Below are positions 11,631 through 60,605 of a stretch of DNA of 64,000 nucleotides, piece by piece. Under the pieces are notes generated by a model, which did not search any database, was not told the origin of the DNA, and saw only the letters and a program-made list of their open reading frames with translations. Both the position numbers and the translations under genes were made by a program. Positions within the stretch are counted from its first letter, which is position 1, and every line of letters begins with the position of its first letter. This stretch comes from an uncultured Clostridia bacterium (GTDB lineage Bacteria > Bacillota > Clostridia > TANB77 > CAG-508): the NCBI GenBank assembly GCA_944386715.1, contig CALXCD010000001.1, positions 8,141-72,140 on the forward strand, given 5' to 3'.

Positions 11631-11726
11631 CAAAAGTATTGATATATTAATATTTTGCAGACAAGACCCGGATTGTTACGCTCAAGATATGTTTTGTCAA
11701 ATAATATTAATATATCAATACTTTTG
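11631..11726. mobile_element. MITE-like structured element, copy 1: perfect 24-bp inverted repeats (CAAAAGTATTGATATATTAATATT / RC) around a conserved 48-nt core TTGCAGACAAGACCCGGATTGTTACGCTCAAGATATGTTTTGTCAAAT
   Basis: Read directly. The core is about 80% identical to 41557-41609, whose flanking inverted repeats are different but also perfect. Confidence 0.6.
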
Positions 11727-11787
11727 GATATTTATTTTTTACTCATTAACTAGTAACATGGGGACGTTCCTTTTTGACAACTTGCAG

Positions 11788-11816
11788 ATATTGACTTTTA
11801 TGTATACCGTGATATA
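11788..11816 (+). promoter_or_regulatory. Sigma-A type promoter TTGACT, 16-nt spacer, TGaTATAAT for the 11875 gene
   Basis: Near-consensus -35 and extended -10, about 60 nt upstream of the ATG. Confidence 0.55.
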
Positions 11817-11874: not shown

Positions 11875-12468
11875 ATGAAACGAGAAACAGACAGGCAACA
11901 TTATAAAGAAAGCCGGTATAGCGAATTCGTAAGGACTCAAAATTATCCCAAAGAAAGAAAACGGATAATTAAACTCCAAAAAGAACTTAAAAAATTGGGA
12001 GATTTCCCCTCAGGAGACCCTAAAAAAATCATTACCTATACAGTTGGTTTTTTAGATTTGGTCTCTAGGTTTCAAGACGAAGGTTATTTGCAATATCAAC
12101 CAATAGAAAAGGCTGAAGCCCAGAAAACCTTCAATTCAGTAATAAAAAATAGTGGTAGGCAAGATTCTCCGAACAAATGGAATTATACCAAAAAAGGAGA
12201 AGCTATCACTATTCATAACATCCTGTTTGGCGGAATTTTAGGTTTACCCATCAAACCAGCTTCTTACTGGCTTAACCTTCCCAAAAGTAAAAAAGTAACA
12301 ATCGACTACAGGAGCAAGTTGGCAATCAATGCCAAAGACAAAAATAGCCCTATTGTTGACACAAAAACAATGTGGGAAACGCAGGCATTGGTAGAAAACA
12401 GCTTAGAAAATTTTTCTCATAATAATTCAGATATTTTAAAGCGTTGTATAAAGAGTCTACTCTCTTGA
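11875..12468 (+). CDS. Hypothetical 197-aa soluble protein, locally elevated GC
   Basis: Intact ORF with AGGAGG RBS. Uses codons (CGG, CCC, CTC, GGC) that are rare elsewhere in the window. No recognisable motif. Confidence 0.55.
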   Translation: MKRETDRQHYKESRYSEFVRTQNYPKERKRIIKLQKELKKLGDFPSGDPKKIITYTVGFLDLVSRFQDEGYLQYQPIEKAEAQKTFNSVIKNSGRQDSPNKWNYTKKGEAITIHNILFGGILGLPIKPASYWLNLPKSKKVTIDYRSKLAINAKDKNSPIVDTKTMWETQALVENSLENFSHNNSDILKRCIKSLLS

Positions 12469-12915: not shown

Positions 12916-13032
12916 ATATTTTTTTATCTGAAAAATTTCTATTTTTATACATTTTGTTACAATTAACAAATATTCTATATATTAATATATCAACTTTTTA
13001 TTAGTATTTCCACTGTATATTGTAACTATATT

Positions 13033-26757: not shown

Positions 26758-26782
26758 TTTTTATTAGCTCCTATCCATCATT

Positions 26783-26828
26783 GGTTCCAGGTTTGGATGC
26801 CAATTTTTTGGCATTCAAACCTGGAACC
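26783..26828. repeat. Palindromic element copy 2: GGTTCCAGGTTTGGATGCCAA-TTTTT-TGGCATTCAAACCTGGAACC (45/46 identical to copy 1)
   Basis: Read directly. Sits between the dnaB stop and the tilS start. Confidence 0.85.
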
Positions 26829-26839
26829 AAAAGCAAAAT

Positions 26840-30984: not shown

Positions 30985-33900
30985 TTAATATTCCATTGTA
31001 TAATATTTCCCGTCCGCTGATTTATTAAAAATAACTCTATCAGAATTAATTGTTATAACTGGACGTATACCATCTCCCTCTGGAAAAATAGTAGTAACTC
31101 CTGTTCCACTAAAAATTTCCCCATTTGCTTCTACATAATCAACTGCATCAGGATCCCAATCACTAATTAAAGGAGTTGCAAGAAGATAACGTGAAGAATC
31201 ATAAACATAATTAGACATGCCCTCTACATTTTTTAATTGATCCAACCTATATATTCCAGTTTCATCTTCAAATGTTTGAATTGTGTCTGTCGAAGATAAA
31301 TCTATGTTATATCTTGCTTTATTGATATTTGTTAAAGTTACCGTATTAAGCTTTACATTTCCGTTTTTAAATAAACTATTTCCCTTTAGCATAAACGGAT
31401 AATAATAGTCATAAACGTTACTTCCATTAGTAATAGAAATATAAGATCCTTTATTGTAACGCTCTTTTCCTTGTATTTCTCCATATTCAAATTCGATATC
31501 TCCCAAATTAGAATAAAGTCCAGCAGATACTGCTAAGCTATTATCACCAGCATAAGAAAACCAATCAGATGGCCATTCAAGTGCCTCTTCGAGTTCCTGT
31601 TGACCTAGTGCGTCTGTTACCCACCAATCATTATTTAGTTGAGAACCAAGCATATCAACCGCTACTTTTGCAGGTATCCCTGTACTAATTAATTTTACAT
31701 TAGAATAAGTTCCATCTTGATTATCTGTATAAGATAATAATCGCCATCCATTAGTAGTAGAATATTTATATTCTGGATAGTATACATCTGTATAAGCAAC
31801 ATCATATTTTACAAAATCTGCTGTTTCAGGTGGTTCTACATCATTAATTGTAATGGTATTACTTCCTGATACATCACTATAATTTCCATTTGTAGAATGA
31901 ATGTACCAATATACCGTAGTAGTTCCTGCTGAACTTCTAGAAGGCTTTGAAGTAGTTCCACTTGTTGAATAATTACTTGATGTTAGAGTACTTGATGTAC
32001 TATAATAAATATTACATCCATTTCTTGGTTCATTTACTACTAAAGTAATCGTATGACTATTTCCATCATAATCTCCAATATAATCTCCTGATGTTTTTTG
32101 AATTGCTTTTTTATTAATCGTAAATGCCTTTGTTGCATTTGTTAATGTATAGTTAGAAGTCTTTTTTCTTCCTCCTGTTACACTTTCTATACTTGCTGTT
32201 GATGTATGAGTTCCTGCACTAACTTCTGTTGTTCTTGTTATATTTAATGTTTCTCTACTTATTCCACTATCTGCACTTGCTGTCGGTGCTTGTGGTGAAC
32301 CATTATAAGTAAAGGTTGTCGTGCTTCCCCATGTTACTGATACACTCTTCTTATTTATTGTCCATGAAATACTTTTTGCTCCTGTTGTTCCATCACTCCA
32401 TGCATAATTTGATGTTGGTGTTGCTTTTGCTGTATATGTTCCTGCATCTATTGCTGATTGCGTTCCACTCCATGTTACTTGACTTCCTGTTACTCCTGTT
32501 TGTGTTGCACCATTATATGTTTTGTTTGCTGCCGATGCTGTTGCTGTTTTTGCTCTTGCTATTGTAAATTGCTTTGTATTTCCTGTTAATGTATAGTTTG
32601 ATGCTTTTCCTCTTCCTCCACTTACACTTGATATACTTGCTGTTGATGTATGTGTTCCTGCACCAATTTCTGTTGTTCTTGTAATATTAAGTGTTTCTCC
32701 ATAAATACCACTTGACGCACTTGCTGTTGGTCCTTGTGCTTTTCCATTGTATGTAAATGTTGTACTTCCCCATGTTACTGATACACTCTTTGGACTAATT
32801 CTCCAACTTAAATTTATGCTTGATGTGCTTCCATCTGACCATTGATAGTTGCCACTATCTTTTAGTGTTACAGTTGCTGTATAATTTCCTGCATCAGTTC
32901 CTGTATTTCCACTAATATTCATTGTACTTGAATTATATCCACTTACATTTAATGATTGTGTATTTCCATTATAAGTATAAGTTCCAGAAGCAGTTGGTTT
33001 TGCTACATTTATTTTAGTTACAGTAGCACTTCCATTATTAGTACTATCTGTAATATCCTTAAATGTTGCATTTGCATAGTTAGTTTTCTTAGCTGTTACC
33101 ACTACATAAATGTATTTTCCTACTAATCCATTACCTATCGTATAAGTTTTTCCTGTTGCCCCACTAATTGGTGTTCCTCCACTTGTTGAATTATATGTAT
33201 TAGAGTACCATTGATAACTTAATGTTGCATCTCCTGGATTTACATTTGTCTGAGCTGTTAAGGTTGAACCATATTGGTTGGTTCCTGTAATTGTTACACT
33301 TCCTGTAATTGTTGCATTTGTAATGTTAAATGCTTTTGTTGTATTGGTTAAAGTATAGTTAGAAGCTTTTCCTCTTCCTCCTGTTACACTTTCTATACTT
33401 GCTGTTGAGGTATAACTTCCTACATTTGTTCCTGTTGTTCTTGTTAAGTTAATTGTCTCTCCACTTACTCCACTTGTTGCTACTACAGTTGGTGCTTGCG
33501 CTTTTCCATTATATACGAAACTTGTTGTCTCTCCCCATGTTACTGAAATTTGTTTTGGATTGATTTTCCATCCTAATGATACTCCTGATGTAGTACCATC
33601 TGACCATTGATAATTGCTACTATCTTTTAATGTTACAGTAGCTGTATAATTTCCAGCATCTGTTCCTGTATTTCCACTTACATTCATCGTACTTGAATTA
33701 TATCCACTTAAACTTAATGTTTGGCTTGCACCATTATAAGTATAACTTCCAGAAACAGTTGGTTTTGCTACATTTATTTTAGTTACAGTAGCACTTCCAT
33801 TATTAGTACTATCTGTAATATCACTAAATGTCGCATTTGTATAGTTAGCTTTCTTAGCTGTTACTACTACATAAATATATTTTCCTACTAGTCCACTACC

Positions 33901-36900
33901 TATTTGATACGTTTTTCCTGTTGCTCCATTAATTGGTGTTCCTCCACTTGTTGAATTACTTGTATTAGAATACCATTGATAACTTAAAGTTGCATCTCCT
34001 GGATTGATACTAGTTTCTGCTGTTAATGTTGAACCATATTGGTTTGTTCCTGTTATCTTTACACTTCCCGTAATAGTTGCATTTGTAATAGTAAATGCTT
34101 TTGTTGTATTGGTTAATGTATAGTTAGATGCTTTTCCTCTTCCTCCTGTTACACTTGTTATACTTGCTATTGAGGTATAACTTCCTACATTTGTTCCTGT
34201 TGTTCTTGTTAAGTTAATGGTTTCTCCACTTACTCCACTTGTTGCTACTACAGTTGGTGCTTGTTCTTTTCCGTTATATACGAAACTTGTTGTCTCTCCC
34301 CATGTTACTGCTACTGATTTTGCATTAATTTTCCAACTTAAAGATACATTTCCTGTACTTCCATCTGACCATTGATAATTGCTACTATCTTTTAAGCTTA
34401 CGGTTGCTGTATAATTTCCTGCATCTGTTCCTGTATTTCCACTCACATTCATCGTACTTGAATTATATCCACTTAAACTTAATGTTTGAGTTGCTCCATT
34501 GTAAGTATAATTTCCTGTTGCAGTTGGTTTATTTAAGTTTATCTTAGTTACAGTAGCACTTCCGTTATTCGTACCATCTGTAATATCACTAAATGTTGCA
34601 TTTGCATAATTAGTTTTCTTAGCTGTTACCACTACATAAATATATTTTCCTACTAGTCCACTACCTATTTGATACGTTTTTCCTGTTGCTCCATTAATTG
34701 GTGTTCCTCCACTTGTTGAATTACTTGTATTAGAATACCATTGATAACTTAAAGTTGCATCTCCTGGATTGACACTAGTTTGAGCTGTTAATGTTGAACC
34801 ATATCGGTTTGTTCCTGTTATTTTAACACTTCCTGTAATCGTTGCATTTGTAATATTAAATGCTTTTGTTGCATTTGTTAATGTATAGTTAGAAGTTTTT
34901 CCTCTTCCTCCTGTTACATTCGTAATACTTGCTGTAGATGTATAACTTCCTACATCAATCTCTGTTGTTCTTGTAATATTAATGGTTTCTCCACTAACAC
35001 CACTTTCCGCACTTACTGTTGGTGCTTGTTCTTTTCCATTATAAACAAAACTTGTTGTATCTCCCCATATTACAGCCACTTCTTTTGCATTAATCTTCCA
35101 GCTTAAAGTCACATTAGATGTAGTTCCATCTGACCATTGATAGTTGCCACTATCTTTTAGTGTTACAGTTGCTGTATAATTTCCTGCATCAGTTCCTGTA
35201 TTTCCACTTACTGTCATATTTCCTGCATCAAATCCATTCAAAGTTAATGTTTGATTAGTTCCATTATAAGTATAATTTCCTGTTGCTGTTGGCTTTTGTA
35301 TACTTATTTTCATAACAGTTGCACTTCCGTTATTAGTTGGGTCTGTAATGTCACTAAATGTTACTTCATTATAATTGTCTTTTTTAGCTGTTACTACTAC
35401 ATAAATATATTTTCCTACTAATCCATCCCCTATTGTATAATCCTTTCTGTTTGCTCCATCAATTGGTGTTCCTCCATTTGTTGAATTAGTTGTATTAGAA
35501 TACCATTGATAAGTTAAAGTAGCATCTTCTGGATTTACATTAGTTTGGGCTGTCAAGGTTGAACCATATTGGTTGGTTCCTGTAATTGTTACACTTCCTG
35601 TAATTGTTGCATTTGTAATATTAAATGCTTTTGTTGTATTAGTTAGTATATAGTTAGCTGTCTTTTCTCTTCCTCCTGTTACACTTTCTAACTTAGCAGT
35701 TGAAGTATAACTTCCTACTTCTGTCTCTGTCGTTCTTGTCATATTAAGAGTTTCGCCATTAACACCACTTTCAGCACTTACTGTTGGTGCTTGTTCTTTT
35801 CCATTATAGACAAAACTTGTTGTTGTTCCCCATACTACTGCTACTTCTTTTGGATTAATTCTCCAGCTCAAAGTCACATTTGATGTAGTTCCATCTGACC
35901 ATTGATAGTTTTCACTATCTTTCAATGTTACAATTGCTGTGTAATCTCCTGCATCTATTCCAGTATTTCCACTAACATTCATTTTTTCTGCATCAAGTCC
36001 CTTTAAAGTTAATGTCTGAGTAGTTCCGTTATAAGTATAACTTCCTTCTGCTGTTGGTTTTTGTACATTTATCTTCATAACAGTTGCACTTCCGTTATTG
36101 GTTGGGTCTGTAATGTCACTAAAGCTTGCATTTCCATAGTTTGGTTTTTTCGCTGTTACTACTACATAAATATATTTTCCTGCTAATCCGCTTCCTACAG
36201 TATAATCTTTTTTATTCGCTCCATCAATTGGTGTTCCTCCACTAGCAACATTATTGCTACTAGAATACCATTGATAAGTTAAAGTTGCATCACTTGGATT
36301 TACTGTTGTTTCTGCTGTTAAAGTAGAACCGTATTGGTTTGTTCCTGTTATTTTCACACTTCCTGTGATAACTTGATTTGCTATACTAAATTCTTTTGTA
36401 GTTCCAATTAAAGTATAGTTAGAAACTTTTTCTCTTCCTCCTGTTACACTTTCCAATTTAGCAGTTGATGTGTAATTACCTACATTAGTTTCTGTCGTTC
36501 TAGTAATATTAAGTGTTTCACCTTCTACACCACTTTCGGCACTTGCTGTTGGTGCTTGTGGGTGTCCATTATATACAAAACTTGTTGTTTCTCCCCATAT
36601 TACTGGTATTTGTTTTGGATTTATTTTCCAACTTAGAGTCACATTAGCTATAGTTCCATCTGACCATTGATAGTTACTACTATCTTTTAATGTTACAGTT
36701 GCTGTATAATCTCCTGCATCAATTCCAGTATCTCCACTTATATTCATAACATTTGCATCATAACCATTTAAAGTTATTTTTTGATTTGTACCATTATAAC
36801 TATAAGTTCCAGAAACTGTTGGTTTTTCCAAGTTAGCTTTCATAACAGTAGCACTTTCGTTAGTATCACTATCTGTAATATCACTAAAGCTTACTTCACC

Positions 36901-39900
36901 ATAATTTGTCTTTTTCGCTGTTACCACTACATAAATGTATTTTCCTATTAAGCCATCTCCTACTGTATAATCTTTTTTATTCGCTCCATCAATTGGTGTT
37001 CCTCCTGTTGTACTTTCTGTTGTATTAGAATACCATTGATAGGTTAAAGTAGCATCTTCTGGGTTTACTACCGTTTGAGCTGTTAAAGTTGAACCGTATT
37101 GATTTGTTCCTATTATTGTTACATTTCCTACTATTTTATCATTTGTAATAGTAAATTCTTTTGTATTATTTGTTAAGGTATAATTAGAAACTTTTCCTCT
37201 TCCTCCTGTTACACTCTCAATACTTGCTACTGATGTATGTGTTCCTACATCTTTTGCCGTTGTTCTTACTACATTAATAACTTCTCCATTTACACCACTA
37301 GAAGCCTTTACTGTTGGAGCTTGTTCTTTTCCGTTATACACAAAGCTTGTGGTTATTCCCCATACAGCCTCTATACTTTTTGTATTAATTTTCCAGTCTA
37401 AAGTTAGCTCTGTCACGGTTCCATCTGACCATTGATAATTCTCACTATCTTTTAAGGATATTATTGCAGTATAATCTCCTGCATCTATTCCTGTATTTCC
37501 ACTTACATTCATAGTTGCTTGATCGAATTTATTTAAAGTTGCCGTTTGGTTTGTTCCGTTATATGTATAAGTTCCTGTAAGTGTTGGTTTTTCAACACTT
37601 ACTTTTATTACAGTTGCACTTTCGTTATTAGTTGGGTCTGTAATATCACTAAAGGTTGCCTCTCCATAATTAGGTTTTGTAGCTGTCACTTGTACATAAA
37701 TGTATTTTCCAATCAATCCCTTTCCTACTACATAATCTTTTTCGTTTGCCCCTTCAATTGGTGTTCCTTCTGTTGTGCTTTCTGTTGTATTAAAGTACCA
37801 TTGATAGGTTAAAGTAGCATCTTCTGGACTTACTACAGTTTGAGCTGTTAAAGTTGAACCATATTGATTTTTTCCTGTTATTTTAACATTTCCTGCTATT
37901 TTATCATTTGTAATAGTAAATTCTTTTGTTGTATTTGTTAAGGTATAGTTAGTTGTCTTTCCTCTTCCTCCTGTTACACTTTCAAGACTTGCTGTTGATG
38001 TATAGTTTCCTACAGTAATTGCTGTTGTTCTTGTAATATTAAGGTTTTCTCCATCTACTCCACTTTCTGCAGTTGCTGTTGGTGCTTGTTCTTTTCCATT
38101 ATAAACAAAGTTTGTCACATCTCCCCAAATTACCGCTATCGTTTTTGGATTAATTTTCCATGTAATTGTTTTTGCTTCTGTTGTTCCATCTTCCCATGTA
38201 TAATTTTCTTCTGGTGTTGCCGTTGCTGTATAAGTTCCTGCATCTATTGCTTCTATTGTTCCTGTTAATATAACATGGTTCCCATTAATACCTTTTTGAT
38301 TTGCACCATTATATATTTTTTCTTCCTCTGCTACTGCTGTTGCTGTTAGCGATTTTTGTACAGTTATTGTTTTGGTGATACTTGCCTCTTTTACTGTTTC
38401 TGTCCTTGCCATAATAGCTGTGATTTCTGAAGCTCCACCCACTGCTACTGGTGTTAATGTTCCTGTACTAGCATCTACTGTCAAATAGGTTGGATTAGAA
38501 GATTGGTAAGTAATTGCTCCTGCTGTTCCTCCTTCTCCACTCACCTTTACTGTTGCTTTTTTACTTGTATCACCATAGTATACAGTATCTGGTGTTGTAT
38601 TTTCCCATTCTAGTGTTCTAGTATATTTTTGTACGGTTATTGTTACTTCCTTACTTGTCTCTTTATAGTTATCGTTTCCTGCATCTGTTACTGTAACTAC
38701 TATTGTTTTATCTCCATCATCATTTATTGAGTTAGTTCCTGCTGTTAATGTATTTCCTTCTATTTTACTTCCTTGTGTTGTTTGATTTTTAATGCTATAA
38801 GTTACATTTCCTTTTGCATTACTTACTAATGTTGATAAATCTACTTTTTCTCCTACTTTAACTGTTTTACTTGTTACTGTCATTGGACTTTCTAATTTTG
38901 TTACTTCAAAACTATTGCTTACTTTTACTTCTTCTGCTCTATTTCCTGCTATATCTGTTACTCTTGTCCATAAGTAATAAGTTCCAGCTTTACAATCTTC
39001 CTTACTTACTGTTTCTCCATTTTCAAATGTCTTCCACTCTTCTTCTTTTGGTTGTTCGTCTTTACTTGTTGACCATGCATATTCTAATTTGTTTAATCCT
39101 GAACCTCCTTCATCTGCTGCTGTTAAAGTTGTTTTTATTGTTGCCTCTCCACTATCTGGCATTACCGTATTTCCCCCATTTGGAGTCAATGTTACAGTTG
39201 GTTTTATCTTATCAATATTACTTATTGTTATTTCTTTCGTTATTTCTTTACCTGATTCATCTTCTACTGTTACTGTTATAGTTTGATTATTTGTTTTTAT
39301 GATGACTTCTGTTTCATCTTTTATTTCGTAATCTATTCCTTCTGTTCCTGTTACTGTTATAGTTTTATCTCCTGTTATTCTATCATCATATTCTATTTTT
39401 ACTGTTACATCTTGGTTTGTCCAGTCTTTTGGATTTTGTGTTAATATGATTAAATTCTCTGTACTTGGTTTTACACTAAATTCTTTACTTACCTCAATTG
39501 CTTCATTTCCTGCTACATCTGTTATTCTTGTCCATAAATAATAACTTCCTTCTTCACAATCTTTTTTACTTACTGTTTGTTCATTTGTTAATGGTTCCCA
39601 TTCTTGTTCTGTTGGTCTTGTTGTATTTGAATTACTCCATGCATATTGTCGTGTATTTAATCCTGAACCTCCTTCATCTTTTGCTGTTACTTTCACTTCT
39701 ATTGTTCCATCTTCTGCTGATTGTTCAGTTGATGTATTAATTAATGTTTTTCCACAGTTTGTTCCCATAGAACATCCATAACCATTTATATCATAGTAAG
39801 TCGAATAACTTGCATGACTATCACATGTTACTGTTCCCCATTCTTGCCCACACTCATCACATTTCATCCAAACATTTTTAGTGGCTGGATTATTACAACC

Positions 39901-40596
39901 TACTACAACACATCCTGAACTTCCAGAATAAGATGTAATTCTATTTCCTCTTAATGTTCCTGAACATGTTTTCCTCTCCTCACAAGTTCCAGCACTAGTA
40001 CTATAATAACCTGAATGTGTTGGGCAATGATAATGCTCTTCTTTAAATGTAGCCTCACATACACTACAATAATACCCTGCTGTTTCAACAAAAAATTCTC
40101 CACCATTTGGATTTAATGTTACTGTTGGTTTTATTTTATCTATTCTTGTAATATCTGCCTTAGCACTCATATCTTTATATTCTGAGATTATTGTACAATT
40201 TTTTCCAATGATAAATTCCTGCTCATATTTTTTCTTAACACCATCAATTGTATAATATCTTTCATCTTCTGGAACTGAAGCCGGAAAAGTAATTTCTACT
40301 TTCAAATCCTGATTTGTCCATTGTTCTATTGGATAAACCTCCCCTGAAGATGCAAAATACAAAGCAATATGAATATTTCCATTTACTAAATCATTATATT
40401 CCTTTTCCATTTCCTTTTCATTACTGCTTTGTTCATAATGTTTTTGTATTGTTTTAACTTGTCTATTTTGTTCTGATACACTATTTACAGTATTGACATA
40501 AATTGCATAAGCAATAATTATGAAAAAAAGTATAGCTATTAAAACAAATAAAGTAATAGAACCTCTTTCTTTTCCATGATTTTTGAATTTACTCAT
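30985..40596 (-). CDS. Giant (3204-aa) repetitive surface adhesin: N-terminal hydrophobic anchor/prepilin-like segment, Cys/His-rich module, Ig-like modules, about 8 tandem 255-aa Y(N/D)G MBG-like repeat units
   Basis: Start set at the ATG at 40596, preceded by AGGAGAG. N-terminus MSKFKNHGKERG|SITLFVLIAILFFIIIAYAI. Repeat unit contains SFVYNGKEQAPT, QYGSTLTAQT and QWYSNT...KYIYVVVTAKK. The ORF-track N-terminal extension has no RBS. Confidence 0.8.
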   Translation of the reverse strand: MSKFKNHGKERGSITLFVLIAILFFIIIAYAIYVNTVNSVSEQNRQVKTIQKHYEQSSNEKEMEKEYNDLVNGNIHIALYFASSGEVYPIEQWTNQDLKVEITFPASVPEDERYYTIDGVKKKYEQEFIIGKNCTIISEYKDMSAKADITRIDKIKPTVTLNPNGGEFFVETAGYYCSVCEATFKEEHYHCPTHSGYYSTSAGTCEERKTCSGTLRGNRITSYSGSSGCVVVGCNNPATKNVWMKCDECGQEWGTVTCDSHASYSTYYDINGYGCSMGTNCGKTLINTSTEQSAEDGTIEVKVTAKDEGGSGLNTRQYAWSNSNTTRPTEQEWEPLTNEQTVSKKDCEEGSYYLWTRITDVAGNEAIEVSKEFSVKPSTENLIILTQNPKDWTNQDVTVKIEYDDRITGDKTITVTGTEGIDYEIKDETEVIIKTNNQTITVTVEDESGKEITKEITISNIDKIKPTVTLTPNGGNTVMPDSGEATIKTTLTAADEGGSGLNKLEYAWSTSKDEQPKEEEWKTFENGETVSKEDCKAGTYYLWTRVTDIAGNRAEEVKVSNSFEVTKLESPMTVTSKTVKVGEKVDLSTLVSNAKGNVTYSIKNQTTQGSKIEGNTLTAGTNSINDDGDKTIVVTVTDAGNDNYKETSKEVTITVQKYTRTLEWENTTPDTVYYGDTSKKATVKVSGEGGTAGAITYQSSNPTYLTVDASTGTLTPVAVGGASEITAIMARTETVKEASITKTITVQKSLTATAVAEEEKIYNGANQKGINGNHVILTGTIEAIDAGTYTATATPEENYTWEDGTTEAKTITWKINPKTIAVIWGDVTNFVYNGKEQAPTATAESGVDGENLNITRTTAITVGNYTSTASLESVTGGRGKTTNYTLTNTTKEFTITNDKIAGNVKITGKNQYGSTLTAQTVVSPEDATLTYQWYFNTTESTTEGTPIEGANEKDYVVGKGLIGKYIYVQVTATKPNYGEATFSDITDPTNNESATVIKVSVEKPTLTGTYTYNGTNQTATLNKFDQATMNVSGNTGIDAGDYTAIISLKDSENYQWSDGTVTELTLDWKINTKSIEAVWGITTSFVYNGKEQAPTVKASSGVNGEVINVVRTTAKDVGTHTSVASIESVTGGRGKVSNYTLTNNTKEFTITNDKIVGNVTIIGTNQYGSTLTAQTVVNPEDATLTYQWYSNTTESTTGGTPIDGANKKDYTVGDGLIGKYIYVVVTAKKTNYGEVSFSDITDSDTNESATVMKANLEKPTVSGTYSYNGTNQKITLNGYDANVMNISGDTGIDAGDYTATVTLKDSSNYQWSDGTIANVTLSWKINPKQIPVIWGETTSFVYNGHPQAPTASAESGVEGETLNITRTTETNVGNYTSTAKLESVTGGREKVSNYTLIGTTKEFSIANQVITGSVKITGTNQYGSTLTAETTVNPSDATLTYQWYSSSNNVASGGTPIDGANKKDYTVGSGLAGKYIYVVVTAKKPNYGNASFSDITDPTNNGSATVMKINVQKPTAEGSYTYNGTTQTLTLKGLDAEKMNVSGNTGIDAGDYTAIVTLKDSENYQWSDGTTSNVTLSWRINPKEVAVVWGTTTSFVYNGKEQAPTVSAESGVNGETLNMTRTTETEVGSYTSTAKLESVTGGREKTANYILTNTTKAFNITNATITGSVTITGTNQYGSTLTAQTNVNPEDATLTYQWYSNTTNSTNGGTPIDGANRKDYTIGDGLVGKYIYVVVTAKKDNYNEVTFSDITDPTNNGSATVMKISIQKPTATGNYTYNGTNQTLTLNGFDAGNMTVSGNTGTDAGNYTATVTLKDSGNYQWSDGTTSNVTLSWKINAKEVAVIWGDTTSFVYNGKEQAPTVSAESGVSGETINITRTTEIDVGSYTSTASITNVTGGRGKTSNYTLTNATKAFNITNATITGSVKITGTNRYGSTLTAQTSVNPGDATLSYQWYSNTSNSTSGGTPINGATGKTYQIGSGLVGKYIYVVVTAKKTNYANATFSDITDGTNNGSATVTKINLNKPTATGNYTYNGATQTLSLSGYNSSTMNVSGNTGTDAGNYTATVSLKDSSNYQWSDGSTGNVSLSWKINAKSVAVTWGETTSFVYNGKEQAPTVVATSGVSGETINLTRTTGTNVGSYTSIASITSVTGGRGKASNYTLTNTTKAFTITNATITGSVKITGTNQYGSTLTAETSINPGDATLSYQWYSNTSNSTSGGTPINGATGKTYQIGSGLVGKYIYVVVTAKKANYTNATFSDITDSTNNGSATVTKINVAKPTVSGSYTYNGASQTLSLSGYNSSTMNVSGNTGTDAGNYTATVTLKDSSNYQWSDGTTSGVSLGWKINPKQISVTWGETTSFVYNGKAQAPTVVATSGVSGETINLTRTTGTNVGSYTSTASIESVTGGRGKASNYTLTNTTKAFNITNATITGSVTITGTNQYGSTLTAQTNVNPGDATLSYQWYSNTYNSTSGGTPISGATGKTYTIGNGLVGKYIYVVVTAKKTNYANATFKDITDSTNNGSATVTKINVAKPTASGTYTYNGNTQSLNVSGYNSSTMNISGNTGTDAGNYTATVTLKDSGNYQWSDGSTSSINLSWRISPKSVSVTWGSTTFTYNGKAQGPTASASSGIYGETLNITRTTEIGAGTHTSTASISSVSGGRGKASNYTLTGNTKQFTIARAKTATASAANKTYNGATQTGVTGSQVTWSGTQSAIDAGTYTAKATPTSNYAWSDGTTGAKSISWTINKKSVSVTWGSTTTFTYNGSPQAPTASADSGISRETLNITRTTEVSAGTHTSTASIESVTGGRKKTSNYTLTNATKAFTINKKAIQKTSGDYIGDYDGNSHTITLVVNEPRNGCNIYYSTSSTLTSSNYSTSGTTSKPSRSSAGTTTVYWYIHSTNGNYSDVSGSNTITINDVEPPETADFVKYDVAYTDVYYPEYKYSTTNGWRLLSYTDNQDGTYSNVKLISTGIPAKVAVDMLGSQLNNDWWVTDALGQQELEEALEWPSDWFSYAGDNSLAVSAGLYSNLGDIEFEYGEIQGKERYNKGSYISITNGSNVYDYYYPFMLKGNSLFKNGNVKLNTVTLTNINKARYNIDLSSTDTIQTFEDETGIYRLDQLKNVEGMSNYVYDSSRYLLATPLISDWDPDAVDYVEANGEIFSGTGVTTIFPEGDGIRPVITINSDRVIFNKSADGKYYTMEY
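32560..38350. repeat. Tandem array of about 8 near-identical repeats of about 765 nt inside the giant adhesin gene
   Basis: The landmark string CCTCCTGTTACACTTTC(T/C)A..CTTGCTGTTGA recurs at about 32611, 33381, 34146, 34911, 35675, 36441, 37203, 37965. Confidence 0.85.
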
Positions 40597-40912
40597 TTTA
40601 CATTCTCTCCTATAAATATTTTTATGCTTTAACAATTCTAATTTAACAAAGCAAAATAAATATTTCAATGCTTTAATTTGGTAAAACCTATCTCCCTTTA
40701 TCAAAGCACTTACGGATTTCGTATTTCGTTTATCTTATTAGAAAAAATTAATTTTATTTTACATTTTTGTAATATTGCTGTAATTTATGCACAAAAAAGC
40801 CTTAAATATTCGATAAATGTCTTTTTTGCAAAAATGTAAAAAAATTTTTCTTGATTTTGCGAGTTTCTTTTGATATATTAATTTTAATTTATAGAGAGGA
40901 AAAATGTTATAA

Positions 40913-41458
40913 AAAAACAAGAAAATCATTATATCCGTAAGGATTGCTGTTATTGTTTTAATAGGATTTTTCATTTTTTTACTAATAAACAACCATAAAA
41001 ACAATACTTCTATAGACCAAAATATTTCCAATAATACTTCAACTGAAATAAATGAGATATCAACAGAGTCTGAATCTACGGTACCAACATTTACCCTAGA
41101 AAGTACACCAGATAATCCTATTGAAATGGACGGGGTAGAAGCCACTACTATCAAAATAAGTAATAATGCAGGAGATGTAAAAGTAGATACTATATTAAAA
41201 AACAATTCTGATGAAGATATACATGGGTTTTTTATCGAAATAAATTTACTAGATAAAGATAACAATATTATTACAACCCTTTCTGAAAATTCCGAAAAAA
41301 CTATAAAAGCTCATAGCGAACATGCCCTAACAAACTATATTACAGCATTAGATAACGCAGAAAATATAACAAATGCACAAATTGTAACAATGGAAAAAAA
41401 CAGTATTAAAAACATGTTAGAAAATAGGTTTCAAGATATAGAAATGATAAAAGAATAA
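40913..41458 (+). CDS. Membrane-anchored 180-aa protein with N-terminal signal-anchor; canonical ATG at 40904 is followed by an in-frame TAA at codon 3
   Basis: Strong RBS AGAGAGGA then ATG TTA TAA. The open frame resumes KNKKIIISVRIAVIVLIGFFIFLLINNHK... and runs to 41458. The first internal ATG is at 41126 (ORF-track entry). The antisense ORF 40759..41265 is low-complexity. Confidence 0.45.
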   Translation, partial: KNKKIIISVRIAVIVLIGFFIFLLINNHKNNTSIDQNISNNTSTEINEISTESESTVPTFTLESTPDNPIEMDGVEATTIKISNNAGDVKVDTILKNNSDEDIHGFFIEINLLDKDNNIITTLSENSEKTIKAHSEHALTNYITALDNAENITNAQIVTMEKNSIKNMLENRFQDIEMIKE

Positions 41459-41466
41459 TTAATACA

Positions 41467-41684
41467 TGAATCTGTCAAGGGGGATATTCCTTTTGGCAGA
41501 TTTCGTTATTTATCATAAAAACTAAAACTATATGAAAAAGTAGTTATCTATTCATAATTTGCAGACAAGACCCGGATTATTACACCCCAAGATTGCTTTT
41601 GTCAAAAAGTATGAATAGATAACTACTTTTTAAGTTATATATAAGTGAAATCTGCCAAAAGGAATATCCCCCTTGACAGATTTA
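41467..41684. mobile_element. MITE-like structured element, copy 2: perfect 35-bp outer IR (AATCTGTCAAGGGGGATATTCCTTTTGGCAGATTT / RC), perfect 22-bp inner IR, conserved core TTGCAGACAAGACCCGGATTATTACACCCCAAGATTGCTTTTGTCAAA
   Basis: Read directly. Fills the gap between the convergent stops of the 41458 gene and rpoC, so it may double as a bidirectional terminator. Confidence 0.6.
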
Positions 41685-41686
41685 CA

Positions 41687-44600
41687 TTATTCTATTATTC
41701 CAGAAACTTGTTCCAATTCTTCCTCTGTACTAATTTTTAAGTCTTGATATTTTTGCATTCCTGTTCCTGCTGGAATTAACTTACCAATAATAACATTTTC
41801 TTTTAATCCCACTAAATCATCAGTCTTACCTTTAATAGCTGCTTCTGTTAATACTCTTGTCGTTTCTTGGAAAGAAGCTGCTGACAAGAAACTATCTGTT
41901 GCAAGAGATGCTTTTGTAATACCAAGTAATACTCTCTTACCTGTAGCAGGACGTTTTCCTTCTTGTTTTGCTTGTTCATTTTTCTCTTCGAATTCATACA
42001 TATCTATTAAAGAACCTGGGAACATGTCTGTATCACCATTATCTTCTACTCTTACCTTTTTAAGCATTTGTCTACCAATTACTTCAATATGTTTATCATT
42101 GATATCAACACCTTGGTTACGATATACTTTTTGAACTTCTGAAATCAAGTATTCATAAACACCTTCTGGTCCTTTAATAGCTAATATTTCTGCTGGATTG
42201 ATAGAACCTTCAATTAAAGGCTCTCCTGCTTCTACCATATCTCCCTCTTTGACTTTCATCTTAGAACCAAATGGAATTGTATATGTTTTAGCATCATCTT
42301 TACTTGTAACAATAACTTCTTTCTTTTTCTTAGTTTCTTTAATTTTAACCTTACCATCTATTTCAGAAATAATAGCAAGTCCTTTTGGTTTTCTAGCTTC
42401 AAATAACTCTTCAACCCTTGGAAGACCTTGTGTAATATCTGCAACACCAGCAACACCACCAGAGTGAATAGTTCTCATTGTAAGCTGTGTACCGGGTTCA
42501 CCAATAGATTGTGCAGCAATGATACCAATCGCTTCTCCAATGGATACCAAATCTCTTCTTGCAAGTCCCATACCATAACATTTTTGACATACACCATGTT
42601 TTGAACGACATCCTAATACAGAACGAACTTTTAATTTTTCTATACCTGCTGCTACTATTTTCTCTGCAATAGCTTCTGTAATCATAGTATTGGTATCTAC
42701 AATTAATTCTTTTGTTTCTGGATGATATACATCTTCTACTACAAATCTTCCTAATAATCTTTCTTGCATTTTTTCAATAATTTGATTTCCATCTTTAATG
42801 TCATAAATAATAATACCATCATCTGTACCACAATCATGCTCTCTAACAATAATGTCTTGTGAAACATCTACTAATCTTCTTGTTAGATATCCTGAGTCAG
42901 CTGTTCTTAAAGCTGTATCAGAAAGTCCTTTACGAGCTCCATGGGCAGAAATGAAATATTCTAAGGCATCTAGACCTTCTGCAAAAGATGATTTAATTGG
43001 AATTTCTACTGCCTTACCAGTAGTACTTGCCATTAAACCACGCATACCTGCAATTTGTCTTAATTGGTTCATATTACCACGGGCTCCAGATTTAACCATC
43101 ATATAAATTGGGTTTAATTCATCAAAATTATCTTCCATGGCATTACTTACTTCTTTGGTAGTAGCTTCCCATACATTAATAACAGCATTATATCTTTCAC
43201 TATCTGTAATAAGACCTCTTGCATATTGTTTTCTAATATTTTCTACTTTGCTATCAGCTTCTTCTAATAATGCTTTTTTCGCTTCTGGCACTTGCACATC
43301 ACTCATAGAGAAAGTAATACCTGCTAAAGTAGAATACTTAAATCCTAATGCTTTAATATAATCAATTACCTCTGCAGACTCTGATAATCCATGAATTCTA
43401 ATAACACTTTCAATAATATTACCCATAGATTTTTTCATAACAGGGAAATTAATCTCATATTGGAAAGGATCTTTCTCTCTATCAATAAATCCTAAATCTT
43501 GTGGAATTCCTTGATTAAAGATAATTCTACCAACACTAGTTTCAATTTTTTGAGATTTCATCTCTCCATTTATTTCTTTTGTAATTCTAACATAAATTTT
43601 TGCATGAATTTCTACTTCATGATTTTCGAAAGCCATGATTGCTTCATCTGGGTCTTTGAAATATTTACCTTCCCCTTTTTCTCCATCTAATACCATTGTT
43701 AAATAATAACTTCCTAAAATCATATCTAGTCTAGGAACTGCTACTGGTCTACCATCTTGTGGTTTTAACAAGTTATTGGTAGATAGCATTAAATATCTAG
43801 ATTCTGCCTGTGCTTCTGGTGATAATGGTAAATGTACTGCCATTTGGTCACCATCGAAGTCTGCATTAAATGCCTCACAAACTAATGGGTGAAGTTTTAT
43901 TGCTCTACCTTCTACCAATACTGGTTCAAAGCTTTGTATACCTAATCTATGTAAAGTAGGAGCACGGTTTAGCATAACAGGATGGTCTTTAATAACTTCT
44001 TCCAAAATTCCCCATACTTCTGGTTTTAATCTTTCTACCATTCTTTTTGCGTTTTTAATATTTTGCGCAATACCTCTGCCTACTAATTCTCTCATGACAA
44101 ATGGTTTAAACAACTCTACTGCCATTTCTTTTGGAAGTCCACATTGATAAATCTTAAGTTCTGGTCCTACTACGATAACAGAACGTCCAGAATAATCAAC
44201 ACGTTTTCCAAGTAAGTTTTGACGGAAACGACCTTGTTTTCCTTTTAGCATATCAGATAAAGATTTTAATGGTCTATTTCCAGCACCAGTTACAGGTCTT
44301 CCACGTCTTCCATTATCAATCAAAGCATCTACAGATTCTTGTAACATTCTTTTTTCATTTCTTACAATAATTTCTGGTGCTCCTAATTCTAATAATCTTT
44401 TTAAACGATTATTTCTGTTAATAACTCTTCTATATAAATCATTTAAATCAGAAGTTGCAAATCTACCACCATCTAATTGAACCATTGGTCTTAATTCTGG
44501 TGGAATAACAGGAACTACCTGCATTACCATCCATTCTGGTCTATTTCCAGAAATTCTAAAAGATTCTACTGTATCTAATCTTTTTACAAGTTTTACCTTT

Positions 44601-45208
44601 TTTTGTTCACTTGCTCCCTCTAATTCTTTTTTGATAGAATCAGATAACTTATCTAAATCAACTTCTTCTAACAACTCTCTTAAAGCTTCTGCTCCCATTT
44701 TTGCTTTAAAAGAACCTCTTCCATATTTTTCTTCTGCCTCGTGATATTCTTTTTCATTCAATACTTGGCATTTTTCTAATCCTGTATCACCTTTATCCAC
44801 AACAATATAAGATGCAAAATAAATAACTTTTTCTAAATTTCTTGGTGAAATATCCAAAATCAAAGCAATTCTACTTGGGATTCCTTTAAAATACCAAATA
44901 TGTGCAACAGGTGCAGCAAGTTCGATATGTCCCATTCTCTCACGTCTTACCTTAGATTTCGTTACCTCAACACCACAACGGTCACAGACGATTCCTTTAT
45001 ATCTTACTCTTTTATATTTACCACAATGACATTCCCAGTCTTTTGTTGGTCCAAATATTCTTTCACAAAATAAACCATCTTTTTCTGGTTTTAAAGTTCT
45101 ATAATTGATAGTCTCTGGTTTTTTTACCTCACCTTTTGACCACTCTCTTACCTTCTCATCTGATGCGATTCCTATTTTTAACTTATTAAAAATATCTAAT
45201 TCGTCCAA
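41687..45208 (-). CDS. rpoC: DNA-directed RNA polymerase subunit beta-prime
   Basis: 1173-aa product with zinc-binding [21 protein letters not shown] and catalytic [12 protein letters not shown] start preceded by GAAGGGGGA. Confidence 0.95.
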
Positions 45209-45412: not shown

Positions 45413-45907
45413 TTACACTTCTCTTTCTTCTTCCTTATCTGTCTTTTCTTCTAACATTCCTTGTGTCCAAAATACTTTTAGCCAGGTAGCATATCTGTCT
45501 CTATTTCTTTCATCCTGCTGTGTTAAATGTTCCAATATAGATTCTTCCGTAATTTCCTTATTTTGCTGTTTCATTTGTCCCATTGTTTCCTTGATTTTTT
45601 GCATCGCACGATTTCTTAAATGTATCGCTTCTATTTGTTCTCTTTCCACATGATTTCTATCTACTATGGCAACATTATCTACATAAGTTAATATTTTACT
45701 TAATCTTAGTTTTGCTTCGCTAACAGCTTGATGTTTTAAACCCAAATATGGCAAACTCTCTATACCTAAATTATTTACAATTTCATCAAAATTAACAAAA
45801 GCTCCATTTGGCAATTTTCCAACCGTATTACATATCCCTTTTACCAAAGTATTTCTTATTGCTTCTCTTGTATTAATTTCATATTTGGGAATCTCTAATC
45901 TACTCAT
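45413..45907 (-). CDS. Hypothetical 164-aa protein encoded between rpoB and rpoC (helical, Glu/Lys-rich C-terminus)
   Basis: Intact ORF starting 11 nt after the rpoB stop with RBS AAGAGGAAAA. 204-nt spacer before rpoC. Composition matches the host genome. No recognisable motif. Confidence 0.6.
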   Translation of the reverse strand: MSRLEIPKYEINTREAIRNTLVKGICNTVGKLPNGAFVNFDEIVNNLGIESLPYLGLKHQAVSEAKLRLSKILTYVDNVAIVDRNHVEREQIEAIHLRNRAMQKIKETMGQMKQQNKEITEESILEHLTQQDERNRDRYATWLKVFWTQGMLEEKTDKEEEREV

Positions 45908-55672: not shown

Positions 55673-55885
55673 AAAAATAATTACCTCCTTTTGGCAACAT
55701 CTATATTATACTATTTTTTTTCTATTTTGTCAAATTTAGTCAAAAGTTTGATTTCTCCTTGTCCTTCTTACGGATACAAGGATTTCATTTTTTCATTTGT
55801 TTTAACTAATGATAGTATATGCGACTTCTTTACCCATTATGACTATTTTTTATAAACTTTTTATACTTTTTTATAGCATCGTAAA

Positions 55886-56010
55886 GATAATGATTTATTC
55901 ATTTTGAAGTGATTTGTGGGGACCATTCTAAAAATTCTAGCAAAAGTTTGAAAAACTTTTGCTAGAATTTTTAGAATGGGGAAAACGAAAAAATGAATAA
56001 ATCATTATCT
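55886..56010. promoter_or_regulatory. About 125-nt imperfect palindrome (perfect 23-bp outer arms, perfect 24-bp inner arms around GAAAAA) in the 3D-domain/lemA divergent region
   Basis: Outer arms AAAGATAATGATTTATTCATTTT / AAAATGAATAAATCATTATCTTT. Inner arms CCATTCTAAAAATTCTAGCAAAAG / CTTTTGCTAGAATTTTTAGAATGG. Confidence 0.5.
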
Positions 56011-56155
56011 TTTACTAACAACATTAAAATAACATTATAAAAAATATAAAACAATTACACAAACTTCACAGATTTTTCACAAATTTATTGTATAAAATAA
56101 ATTAATATGTTATGATGAAATTGTATATAATAAAGTAAAGGAGGATTAATAATAC

Positions 56156-57720: not shown

Positions 57721-57740
57721 TAAAACATCATTAATCAAAA

Positions 57741-57788
57741 AAGATATTTCAAATAAAATTAATCTTTTATTTGAAATATCTTTTTTGC
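57741..57788 (+). terminator. Bidirectional terminator: perfect 18-bp inverted repeat AAGATATTTCAAATAAAA / TTTTATTTGAAATATCTT then TTTTTTGC
   Basis: Lies between the convergent htpX-like and tatD genes. The right arm overlaps the last tatD codons. Confidence 0.65.
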
Positions 57789-58931: not shown

Positions 58932-58974
58932 TTTGTTCTCCTTTCTTTAGCCTTTACATCCCATTTTCTATAAA

Positions 58975-59065
58975 ATACTTATATATTAATATTGAAAAAA
59001 TTTTGAATATGAATAAAGAAAAGTTAGAATTTATAAAATATTAATATATAAGTATTTATAATCAT
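58975..59065. repeat. AT-rich inverted-repeat element: ATACTTATATATTAATATT ... AATATTAATATATAAGTAT around AAATTTTGAATATGA
   Basis: 19-bp perfect arms read directly. The same TATATTAATATT + AAATTTTGAATATGA unit recurs at 60403-60440 in the same orientation. Confidence 0.6.
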
Positions 59066-60326: not shown

Positions 60327-60397
60327 CTTTATTCCTTCATTCCATTTTATATTTAAACTTTTATTAGTTACAATTCACAACTAAAATTTATTAGAAT

Positions 60398-60605
60398 GTT
60401 GATATATTAATATTAAATAAATTTTGAATATGATTGTAGATGTTTTAGAATTTGTTATATGATTTATTGAGGAATGTTCACGGTACTCGAGGTACGAGAG
60501 GGTTTGAGTGAAAGAGACTCAATAAATCATTTTACAAATTCTTAAATATCGTATTGAATCGAAAAATTTATGAAATATTAATATATCAATATTTTTATTA
60601 ATCTA
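60398..60605. repeat. AT-rich inverted-repeat element (GTTGATATATTAATATTAAATAAATTTTGAATATGA ... AAATTTATGAAATATTAATATATCAAT) enclosing a GC-richer inner hairpin (GATTTATTGAG ... CTCAATAAATC)
   Basis: Read directly. The inner core GAATGTTCACGGTACTCGAGGTACGAGAGGGTTTGAGTGAAAGAGAC is unusually GC-rich for the window. Confidence 0.55.

Follow-up and report, generated by a model that had tools for sequence, protein, structure and literature searches.

This locus raises the question of how one 48-nt core comes to lie within perfect inverted repeats of different sequence at two sites of a bacterial chromosome. The DNA concerned, referred to here as the window, is a 64,000-nt chromosomal stretch from an uncultured Clostridia bacterium (assembly GCA_944386715.1, contig CALXCD010000001.1, positions 8,141 to 72,140). 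Its G+C content is ~30%, nearly all of its genes lie on the - strand, and the presence of cohesin and dockerin genes among them points to a host from a fiber-degrading Clostridial lineage. Site 1 occupies part of the 357 nt that separate an SNF2-family helicase gene (8236-11517, -) from a divergent gene for a 197-amino acid protein (11875-12468, +). Site 2 follows the stop codon of rpoC (41687-45208, -) at a distance of 4 nt, and the gene on its other side, which codes on the + strand for a small membrane protein, has its 3' end toward the site; past that gene is the gene for a giant, Thr/Ser/Gly/Asn-rich protein of 3,204 amino acids with an N-terminal membrane anchor (30985-40594, -). We conclude, with a probability of roughly 0.7, that each of the two sites holds a copy of a non-coding, lineage-restricted mobile repeat, ~90-100 nt in length and hairpin-forming, which is similar to miniature inverted-repeat transposable elements (MITEs) and to REPINs, which are hairpin-forming doublets of repetitive extragenic palindromic (REP) sequences, and that the copy at site 2 resides in an invertible segment. 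The features are listed in Table 1.

Two Diverged Copies of One Palindromic Repeat

The window contains the 18-mer GCAGACAAGACCCGGATT exactly twice, on the + strand in both instances (11657 and 41561), and it matched none of 100 dinucleotide-preserving shuffles. Similarly, a search of the 64 kb with a profile built from the repeat family described below located core copies at these two sites only. The two cores (11655-11702 and 41557-41609) are ~80% identical over 48-53 nt, with GCAGACAAGACCCGGATT itself identical, which bears out the claim of an initial annotation that a shared core lies in perfect inverted repeats at both sites. The repeat lengths it gave, 24 bp at site 1 and 22 bp for the inner repeat at site 2, were confirmed, but the outer repeat at site 2 measures 36 bp rather than 35 bp. 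When lengthened, the site-1 repeat reaches 33 nt at 91% (11622-11654 and 11703-11735) around the enclosed 48 nt, and the inner arms of copy 2 reach 26 nt at 96%. Core 1 holds an inner 8-bp stem, GACAAGAC/GTTTTGTC, and the repeat unit is made up of AT-rich arms of ~23 bp around a conserved 48-nt center with this stem of its own.

The stems at the two sites had been described as non-homologous. Their inner arms are, instead, collinear, agree at 20 of 26 positions (77%) in an ungapped alignment and represent diverged homologues. The paired part contains five differences, and for each of them the partner arm has the complementary change.

Table 1. Features of the two sites (positions and strands are those of the window)
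Feature	Position	Strand	Description
Palindromic repeat copy 1 ("A-type")	11631..11726	+	Perfect 24-bp arms 11631-11654 / 11703-11726
158-bp MITE remnant with copy 1 at its center	11600..11757	+	Alignment to loci L010 and L020; pattern search
Degenerate half-copy of the outer-arm hairpin family	11758..11790	+	ATGGGGACGTTCCTTTTTGACAAC...; abuts right end of MITE remnant
Sigma-70-like motif, core 1	11672..11700	-	TTGACA-N17-AACAAT, consensus match only; faces SNF2 helicase gene
Palindromic repeat copy 2	41535..41631	+	Perfect 22-bp arms 41535-41556 / 41610-41631; core 41557-41609
Sigma-70-like motif, core 2	41576..41605	-	TTGACA-N18-AATAAT with upstream TG, consensus match only; in window orientation reads away from rpoC
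Invertible segment	41505..41646		30-nt spacer, copy 2 and 15-nt spacer; opposite orientation in other strains
Outer left arm, segment boundary	41469..41504	+	Just past stop of convergent small gene; scored as terminator-like
Outer right arm, segment boundary	41647..41682	-	Same hairpin read on - strand, 4 nt after rpoC stop

Pairing within the repeat was analyzed in an alignment of 18 copies, the consensus fold comprising 21 arm pairs and the 8-bp inner stem. In the arms, 96.9% of cells were paired, and double compensatory changes were present in 9 of the 21 arm pairs (30 cells), in agreement with the stem covariation that the initial annotation had claimed. Column shuffles never reached the observed pairing values (0/500), and pairing fell to 40-51% when the register was shifted by 1-3 columns. 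Compensation proceeded from one Watson-Crick pair to another, flips of A-T to T-A and of G-C to T-A among them; G-U was present in just 1-2 cells. The symmetry of the arms is therefore that of Watson-Crick DNA pairing rather than the wobble-rich pattern of an RNA helix. The inner stem was invariant except for a matched G/C insertion in two copies at locus L015, so that covariation neither supports nor contradicts its pairing.

The longest invariant block, GACAAGACCCGGATT, was present in all 18 copies and spanned 15 consecutive invariant columns (A33-T48 of the first aligned sequence), followed by a nearly invariant G at position 49. It extends as GACAAGACCCGGATTGTTA in every copy but that at window site 2, where ATTA is found. 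The most variable part was the 3' half of the apical loop, and the outer arms also varied.

Two alleles of the site-2 core were observed, that of the window (41576-41600) and that of loci L057-L063, which differ by ~6-8 changes, including indels, within a 20-nt apical loop (GCAATCTTGGGGTGTAATAAT versus CATATCTAGGGTATAACAAT). Their arms and the rest of the unit are identical, which suggests that the loop is a local mutational hotspot or was converted from another copy.

A Dispersed Repeat Family in Related Clostridia

All comparative evidence was drawn from metagenome assemblies, that is, from consensus contigs. The genome scan for GCAGACAAGACCCGGATT covered one genome per species and required exact matches, as did the metagenome pattern scan, and diverged copies are consequently under-counted. 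Ten matches were found in BRZ_PM__bin58, a metagenome-assembled genome of an uncultured Clostridia bacterium, and two in BRZ_RS__bin5; the remaining 13 genome matches fell in GC-rich coding sequence at about the number expected by chance. The metagenome scan added two true copies in one assembly. With looser patterns applied to the loci fetched for comparison (cited here by L numbers), the total rose to ~25 dispersed copies in four genomes of related uncultured Clostridia of the gut type. The search for copies in genomes that the initial annotation had called for was thus positive, and the core is not confined to the two window loci. Viral contigs, phage records and plasmid records contained no matches, and a phage or plasmid origin was rejected on these grounds.

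Copies were also clustered, with three-copy tandem arrays of ~96-nt period at L014 and L002, adjacent pairs at L011 and L015, and one copy in which the core is duplicated. The bin58 copies have conserved arms (AAAAAGTTATATATTAATATTTT ... AAAAAATATTAATATATAACTTTTT) that are homologous to the arms in the window, which implies that the unit is a palindromic repeat of ~90-100 nt and not a core placed in arbitrary shells. The same variants of the outer stem, AAATAG/CTATTT being one example, were found again in other genomes and at other loci and hence travel with the element; insertion into pre-existing palindromic targets was rejected as the source of the variable outer stems.

Every copy is intergenic. 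In 5 cases the flanking genes diverge, in 2-3 they converge, and in 7 they run in the same direction, in either sense. No orientation bias of the copies relative to neighboring genes was seen. This mixture of contexts argues against a dedicated promoter, terminator or leader role, and the promoter and terminator roles were rejected also because the SNF2 gene retains its own promoter in strains that lack the element.

The arm motif also occurs apart from complete units. A stand-alone palindrome, CTATATATTAATATATCAAC, at 12964-13003 of the window carries the motif with nothing between its halves and might be related to the repeat as a collapsed or cargo-less form, and single arm-like motifs are present at 40873, 27861 and 60581.

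A 158-bp Form and Evidence of Movement

A longer unit of 158 nt is common to L010, L020 (bin5) and window site 1, the contexts of which are non-syntenic. At L010 and L020, which represent one relative, the ends of the unit are formed by the inverted terminal repeat GTTACTAGNTAATGG, and exact direct repeats of 8 bp adjoin it on both sides, ATTTTATC at the former locus and GATTCATT at the latter. Target duplications at two non-syntenic sites indicate that the 158-bp form has moved. The test for target-site duplications proposed in the initial annotation was accordingly positive for this form (8/8 at both L010 and L020) and negative for window copy 1 and the short bin58 copies. The right terminal repeat of the remnant in the window (11743-11757) reads CATTAACTAGTAAC. 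In size and structure the family resembles MITEs, with units of 90-100 nt (arms of ~23 bp) and of 158 nt (ends GTTACTAGNTAATGG) and no open reading frame (ORF), and it shares with them dispersed copies and presence or absence at orthologous loci.

Such polymorphism was observed at both sites. The site-1 element is absent from the orthologous locus in L112-L116, in which the region upstream of SNF2 is otherwise nearly identical and three tandem copies of a different small hairpin repeat take its place. The site-2 unit is absent in L084-L091, L102-L105, L092-L094 and L118, among them relatives with 96-97% identity in RpoC as well as strains in which RpoC is near-identical but the downstream region differs; in L118 a simple bidirectional terminator hairpin lies between rpoC and an intact 175-amino acid homologue of the small membrane protein. 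At both sites the differences are replacements and not clean empty sites. No cognate insertion sequence with matching terminal repeats was found in the window or the fetched loci.

The short public contigs L072, L073, L109 and L110 end at or inside the site-1 hairpin, which fits the breaking of assemblies at a palindrome and is not evidence of inversion. The different hairpin repeat seen in L112 (~2310-2400) belongs to a second small family, TTGGCATCCAAACCTGGAACC, that is present in the window at 8160-8221 and 26781-26830 as two inverted doublets with 4-nt loops. Between trmFO and SNF2, where the window carries the TTGGCATCCAAACCTGGAACC-type doublet, L064-L067 have a hairpin doublet of GGGGACGTTCC type as the alternative allele.

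An Invertible Segment Beside rpoC

The initial annotation took the outer repeat at site 2 for a second shell of the element. Its arms, 36 nt long, 100% complementary and separated by 142 nt, are instead separate hairpin-like structures that bound a segment that inverts in nature. Regions 3' of rpoC were aligned across European Nucleotide Archive contigs with ~100% identical RpoC, and in some of these all sequence between the 36-nt arms was reversed, so that the asymmetric spacers (30 versus 15-25 nt) trade sides. Among the 13 assemblies with the unit, all alleles counted, 8 had the window orientation (A) and 5 the opposite orientation (B). For the 150-nt allele, four contigs in orientation A and five in orientation B are exact reverse complements of each other. 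The segment measures 142-150 bp across alleles and, as expected of an inverton, lies between inverted repeats (36 bp) and occurs in both orientations.

Both orientations were found in both sample cohorts (BRZ and ONAT22) and each on at least three flanking haplotypes, which differ by 20-37 single-nucleotide polymorphisms in 4.7 kb; this suggests recurrent switching. A one-base difference between the arms remains with the flank after inversion, which places the crossover inside the arm. A 36-bp repeat is shorter than the largest k-mers of the assemblers metaSPAdes and MEGAHIT, and orientation is therefore presumably set by arm-spanning reads and not by graph ambiguity. Only the whole segment flips: the site-2 core is fixed relative to the asymmetric spacers, and site 1 is fixed in 11 contigs. 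A mini-inverton in which the 48-nt core flips between its inner arms was rejected on these grounds. The window-type allele of the site-2 core was found in orientation A only (4/4).

Taken singly, the outer arms are imperfect hairpins of the form TCTGTCAAGGGGG-ATATT-CCTTTTGGCAGA, with G-U pairs on the + strand in the left arm. An intact doublet of such hairpins, GTTGCCATCGGGGACGTTCCTTTTTGGCAAC, with a 41-nt spacer lies between trmFO and SNF2 in L064-L067, and similar hairpins form an inverted doublet around the MITE insertion at L020. The outer repeat is an element of another kind, in which two REP-like hairpins form an inverted doublet. The hairpins may represent lox-like sites for recombination, REP-like doublets or terminators that serve the convergent genes in a strand-specific manner.

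Promoter-like Motifs in the Cores

Both cores contain a sigma-70-like motif (Table 1), the spacer of which varies in sequence and is constant in length across the family. The SNF2 gene has a proximal TTGCTT-N17-TATAAT motif of its own, which is kept in strains without the site-1 element. The motif in core 2 is ~970 nt from the start codon of the giant gene, within a segment that lies between convergent 3' ends. We would put the chance that the cores act as promoters at roughly one in three. Readings of the core as a sigma-54 promoter, a CtsR operator or another operator were rejected by inspection, the spacing or motifs being a poor fit.

Proposed Mechanism and Alternative Explanations

In the mechanism that we propose, the arms would be kept complementary by folding of the element as a single-stranded DNA hairpin, or by its extrusion as a cruciform, for recognition or copying. 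Alternatively or in addition, intrastrand template switching within the hairpin may copy changes from arm to arm. The invariant apical sequence GACAAGACCCGGATTGTTA would be the recognition site of a mobilizing enzyme, and the 158-bp form has moved by a cut- or copy-and-paste reaction that leaves 8-bp target duplications. Recombination between the site-2 outer arms flips the 142-150-bp segment containing copy 2 and would redirect its predicted sigma-70-like promoter, which in one orientation would run antisense through the small convergent gene toward the giant surface-protein gene and in the other antisense into the 3' end of rpoC. If this nested promoter is active, the locus would exemplify promoter delivery by a mobile element into an invertible cassette that adjoins rpoC and the gene for a giant surface protein.

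Several observations weigh against the reading of a mobile repeat with one copy in an invertible segment. By the standard of classical families of REPs or MITEs, copy number is modest. No transposase or recombinase domain was found in any gene of the 64-kb window, so that the absence of a nearby transposase in the initial annotation holds for the whole of it, and no gene for a REP-associated tyrosine transposase (RAYT, a Y1 HUH transposase) is present there. The left terminal repeat of the window remnant is degenerate (TAGTTAATGG, outer 5 nt unmatched) and no target duplication is visible at copy 1, which therefore looks like an old insertion. The short 90-nt bin58 copies likewise have no convincing target-site duplication and either move without leaving one or spread mainly by local tandem duplication. 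Different copies have different -35 elements (TTGACA, TGGACA, TAGACA, TTGGCA), and these overlap the inner stem; the promoter resemblance may therefore be coincidence. Inversion is known from consensus assemblies of different samples and not from within-strain read ratios, and a few old inversions spread by recombination could also have produced the observed pattern. At site 1, no inversion of the core was seen in 11 orthologous contigs, all of the same orientation. Finally, the site-2 segment sits between the 3' ends of two convergent genes, and a classical ON/OFF switch is consequently not the obvious reading.

A possible, tentative alternative is that site 2 is a programmed phase-variable promoter switch, in which a distant recombinase binds lox-like outer arms to turn the giant surface-protein gene ON or OFF and the core is a portable promoter. 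Such a switch fits the presence of both orientations in natural strains (8 to 5, on several haplotypes) and the form of the outer arms, a pseudo-dyad of two ~13-bp half-sites around an asymmetric center of 5-7 bp. Segment and repeat sizes are within the usual range, >75% of invertons being shorter than 300 bp (PMC11602134). A TTGACA-N17/18-AAYAAT motif of constant spacer length is present in the core at both window sites and in most family members; in the window orientation it faces the membrane-anchored giant protein, the length of which varies strongly between strains, as is often so for phase-varied surface proteins. However, the ~970 nt that separate motif and giant gene contain an oppositely oriented gene, the giant gene has a divergent promoter region of its own, and transcription from the opposite orientation would be antisense to rpoC. 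No inversion was seen in 4 contigs for a related hairpin doublet with a 41-nt spacer, and the site-1 core, next to a gene with its own promoter, was never inverted. The window contains no recombinase gene, although known invertases can act from distant loci.

The palindromes might also be passive products of DNA metabolism, with the arms kept by quasi-palindrome correction, the site-2 inversion an occasional by-product of 36-bp repeats, and no regulatory meaning attached to either. We consider this unlikely. Strict Watson-Crick symmetry, transversion flips included, is what templated copying of arms should yield; other unrelated long perfect palindromes exist in the window (8160-8221, 26781-26830, 55883-56012 and 57736-57787), the inverting segment lies where orientation may not matter, and the apical loop is the most variable part, with many differences between two otherwise identical alleles. 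Passive maintenance leaves unexplained, however, the invariant 19-nt GC-containing core in four genomes with a 28-30% GC background and the dispersal to non-syntenic sites with 8-bp target duplications, and a rare accident between 36-bp repeats would hardly be expected in as many as 5 of 13 assemblies, on at least three haplotypes.

The initial annotation had left a choice between a MITE-like element and a structured RNA; the multi-copy, mobile nature of the repeat supports the former, and the latter found no positive support. A non-coding RNA gene or cis-regulatory RNA hairpin with the conserved loop as seed or protein-binding site would agree with the very stable predicted folds (-30 to -36 kcal/mol, z of about -8 to -9), the significant stem covariation, an invariant G-T pair in the inner stem that is tolerated only as G-U in + strand RNA, and an A-tract/hairpin/T-tract arrangement on both strands that resembles a bidirectional intrinsic terminator. 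Yet the proposed covariance-model search, performed with the Rfam models on the whole window, gave no match at gathering thresholds, and permissive E-value scans of both sites and of the element designated C returned only microRNA-hairpin look-alikes below gathering scores. Copies have no consistent orientation or position relative to genes, compensation is nearly all Watson-Crick, the element is missing at orthologous loci of close relatives without a like replacement, and target duplications, like tandem arrays, characterize mobile DNA and not an RNA gene. Most of the arm mismatches that lack compensation are A-C on the + strand, in conflict with the strand implied by the inner-stem G-T pair; a strand call from these signals was rejected because they conflict and the counts are small. 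An RNA function is, on balance, quite improbable. A search of the window for tRNA and tmRNA genes found none.

A bolder extension of the mobile-repeat reading, which we regard as a long shot, is that the A-type hairpin represents a previously undescribed Clostridial class of structure-recognized mobile DNA, in which a transposase or recombinase that acts on single-stranded DNA would engage GACAAGACCCGGATTGTTA on its 8-bp stem. By serving as an accessory or enhancer site, this module might also make neighboring hairpin doublets inversion-competent. This would explain the long spacers in both doublets that carry an A-type element and the inversion of the one sampled across strains, and the mobile element would then create new phase-variable switches wherever it lands.

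Comparison with Known Systems

The closest described behavior is that of REPINs, hairpin-forming doublets in which compensatory changes are common and which form ordered clusters (PMC3116915). In common with REPINs, for which RAYT transposases provide mobility, and with the clusters of bacterial interspersed mosaic elements (BIMEs) in enterobacteria and pseudomonads, the repeat is short, non-coding and intergenic and forms long hairpins. Like REPINs, it shows compensatory changes on both sides, single copies as well as ordered tandem clusters, and, in the short bin58 copies, no obvious target duplication (PMC3116915). The site-2 outer arms, as two inverted imperfect hairpins with a 41-45-nt spacer, have the architecture of a REP doublet. 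The repeat itself forms a hairpin from an inverted doublet with compensatory changes, as REPINs do. The combination of conserved arms, looser spacer and high copy number that is typical of REPINs was not found: REPINs conserve the REP arms over the spacer, whereas here the apical 48 nt are conserved at least as well as the arms, and the repeat is AT-rich with tens of copies where REPINs are GC-rich with hundreds. Furthermore, the REPIN and BIME systems are those of Proteobacteria, and the present host belongs to the Clostridia.

Among MITEs, the appropriate comparators are the Correia elements of Neisseria and the RUP and BOX elements of Streptococcus pneumoniae. These are intergenic hairpins of ~100-160 bp with terminal inverted repeats and target-site duplications, which can carry outward promoters or act as terminators and are polymorphic in presence or absence. 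The present family is similar in size, terminal repeats, dispersal and strain polymorphism, with an 8-bp duplication on its 158-bp version. It differs in that the short 90-nt form lacks detectable duplications and in that the arms evolve by compensation and are not fixed as transposase-binding sites.

Promoter inversion is well known from fimS, the Mpi-controlled promoters of Bacteroides and the RecV switches of Clostridioides difficile, and invertons are catalogued by PhaseFinder and DeepInverton. The site-2 segment resembles these in its 142-150-bp length, 36-bp inverted repeats and two orientations, with a promoter-like motif inside, a giant variable surface-protein gene nearby and a typical size (PMC11602134). 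In contrast to them, it lies between convergent gene ends and not directly upstream of its presumed target, no invertase gene is found within the 64-kb window, the arms are themselves hairpins that resemble the terminators of both genes, and the cargo is a nested mobile palindrome.

Integron attC sites and the subterminal hairpins of IS200/IS605 are single-stranded DNA substrates recognized by structure. Maintenance of pairing while the stem sequence changes, as seen here, would fit such recognition of a folded single strand. In attC, however, the loop varies and boxes at the stem base are conserved, the reverse of the present pattern; neither an integrase or TnpA gene context nor a signature of extrahelical bases was identified for the repeat.

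The repeat family, the nesting of a mobile palindrome in an invertible hairpin doublet and the inversion polymorphism beside rpoC appear to be undescribed instances, and nothing in the findings is outside the known categories of MITE/REPIN-like repeat and inverton. They add a small family of mobile palindromes and a natural DNA inversion to an uncultured Clostridial lineage with cohesin and dockerin genes, in which such elements are hardly catalogued. A conserved loop in different perfect stems can thus arise by compensatory evolution of one mobile repeat, and an outer shell can be a separate recombination site, as near-identical strain assemblies directly reveal.

Neighboring Genes and Other Palindromes

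The small membrane-protein gene (40912-41458, +) begins ATG TTA TAA AAA AAC..., with an in-frame TAA at codon 3 that is present in all 13 strains with the invertible unit; the homologue in L118 is intact (175 amino acids) and starts MKNKKI. Gene callers report only the last 110 amino acids. The gene could be a fixed pseudogene, could have a non-canonical start or could be subject to stop-codon readthrough.

No Pfam domain was found in the giant protein. In strains with identical RpoC its sequence differs strongly and its length ranges from 1,964 to 3,203 amino acids, or the gene is split into several ORFs. Other genes occupy its position in L084-L091 and L102-L105 (near-identical RpoC, no invertible unit), and a Flg_new-domain surface-protein gene does so in L092-L093 (96% RpoC identity). 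The locus downstream of rpoC is a hypervariable surface-protein site. Between rpoB and rpoC, a 164-amino acid ORF (45413-45907, -) with no Pfam match is kept in all close strains and is absent in relatives at 95-97% RpoC identity, in which the gap from rpoB to rpoC is ~40-220 nt.

Long perfect palindromes are unusually abundant in this genome. Nested palindromes in the intergenic region 55844-56046 include perfect repeats of 23 and 27 bp (at 55883-56012), and the intergenic hairpin at 57736-57787 is perfect over 23 bp. Two further palindromic units, at 58973-59057 and 60377-60611, have the arm motif (G/T)ATATATTAATATT and cargos of 43 and 159 nt, respectively. The cargos differ, but both start with a promoter-like TTGAAT-N16-TAGAAT motif. 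No inversion of these units was seen in 10 contigs, and neither matched Rfam. The 159-nt cargo contains a 33-bp internal hairpin, and in L075 and L079 the shorter unit has an extra 95 nt, by which it comes to resemble the longer one.

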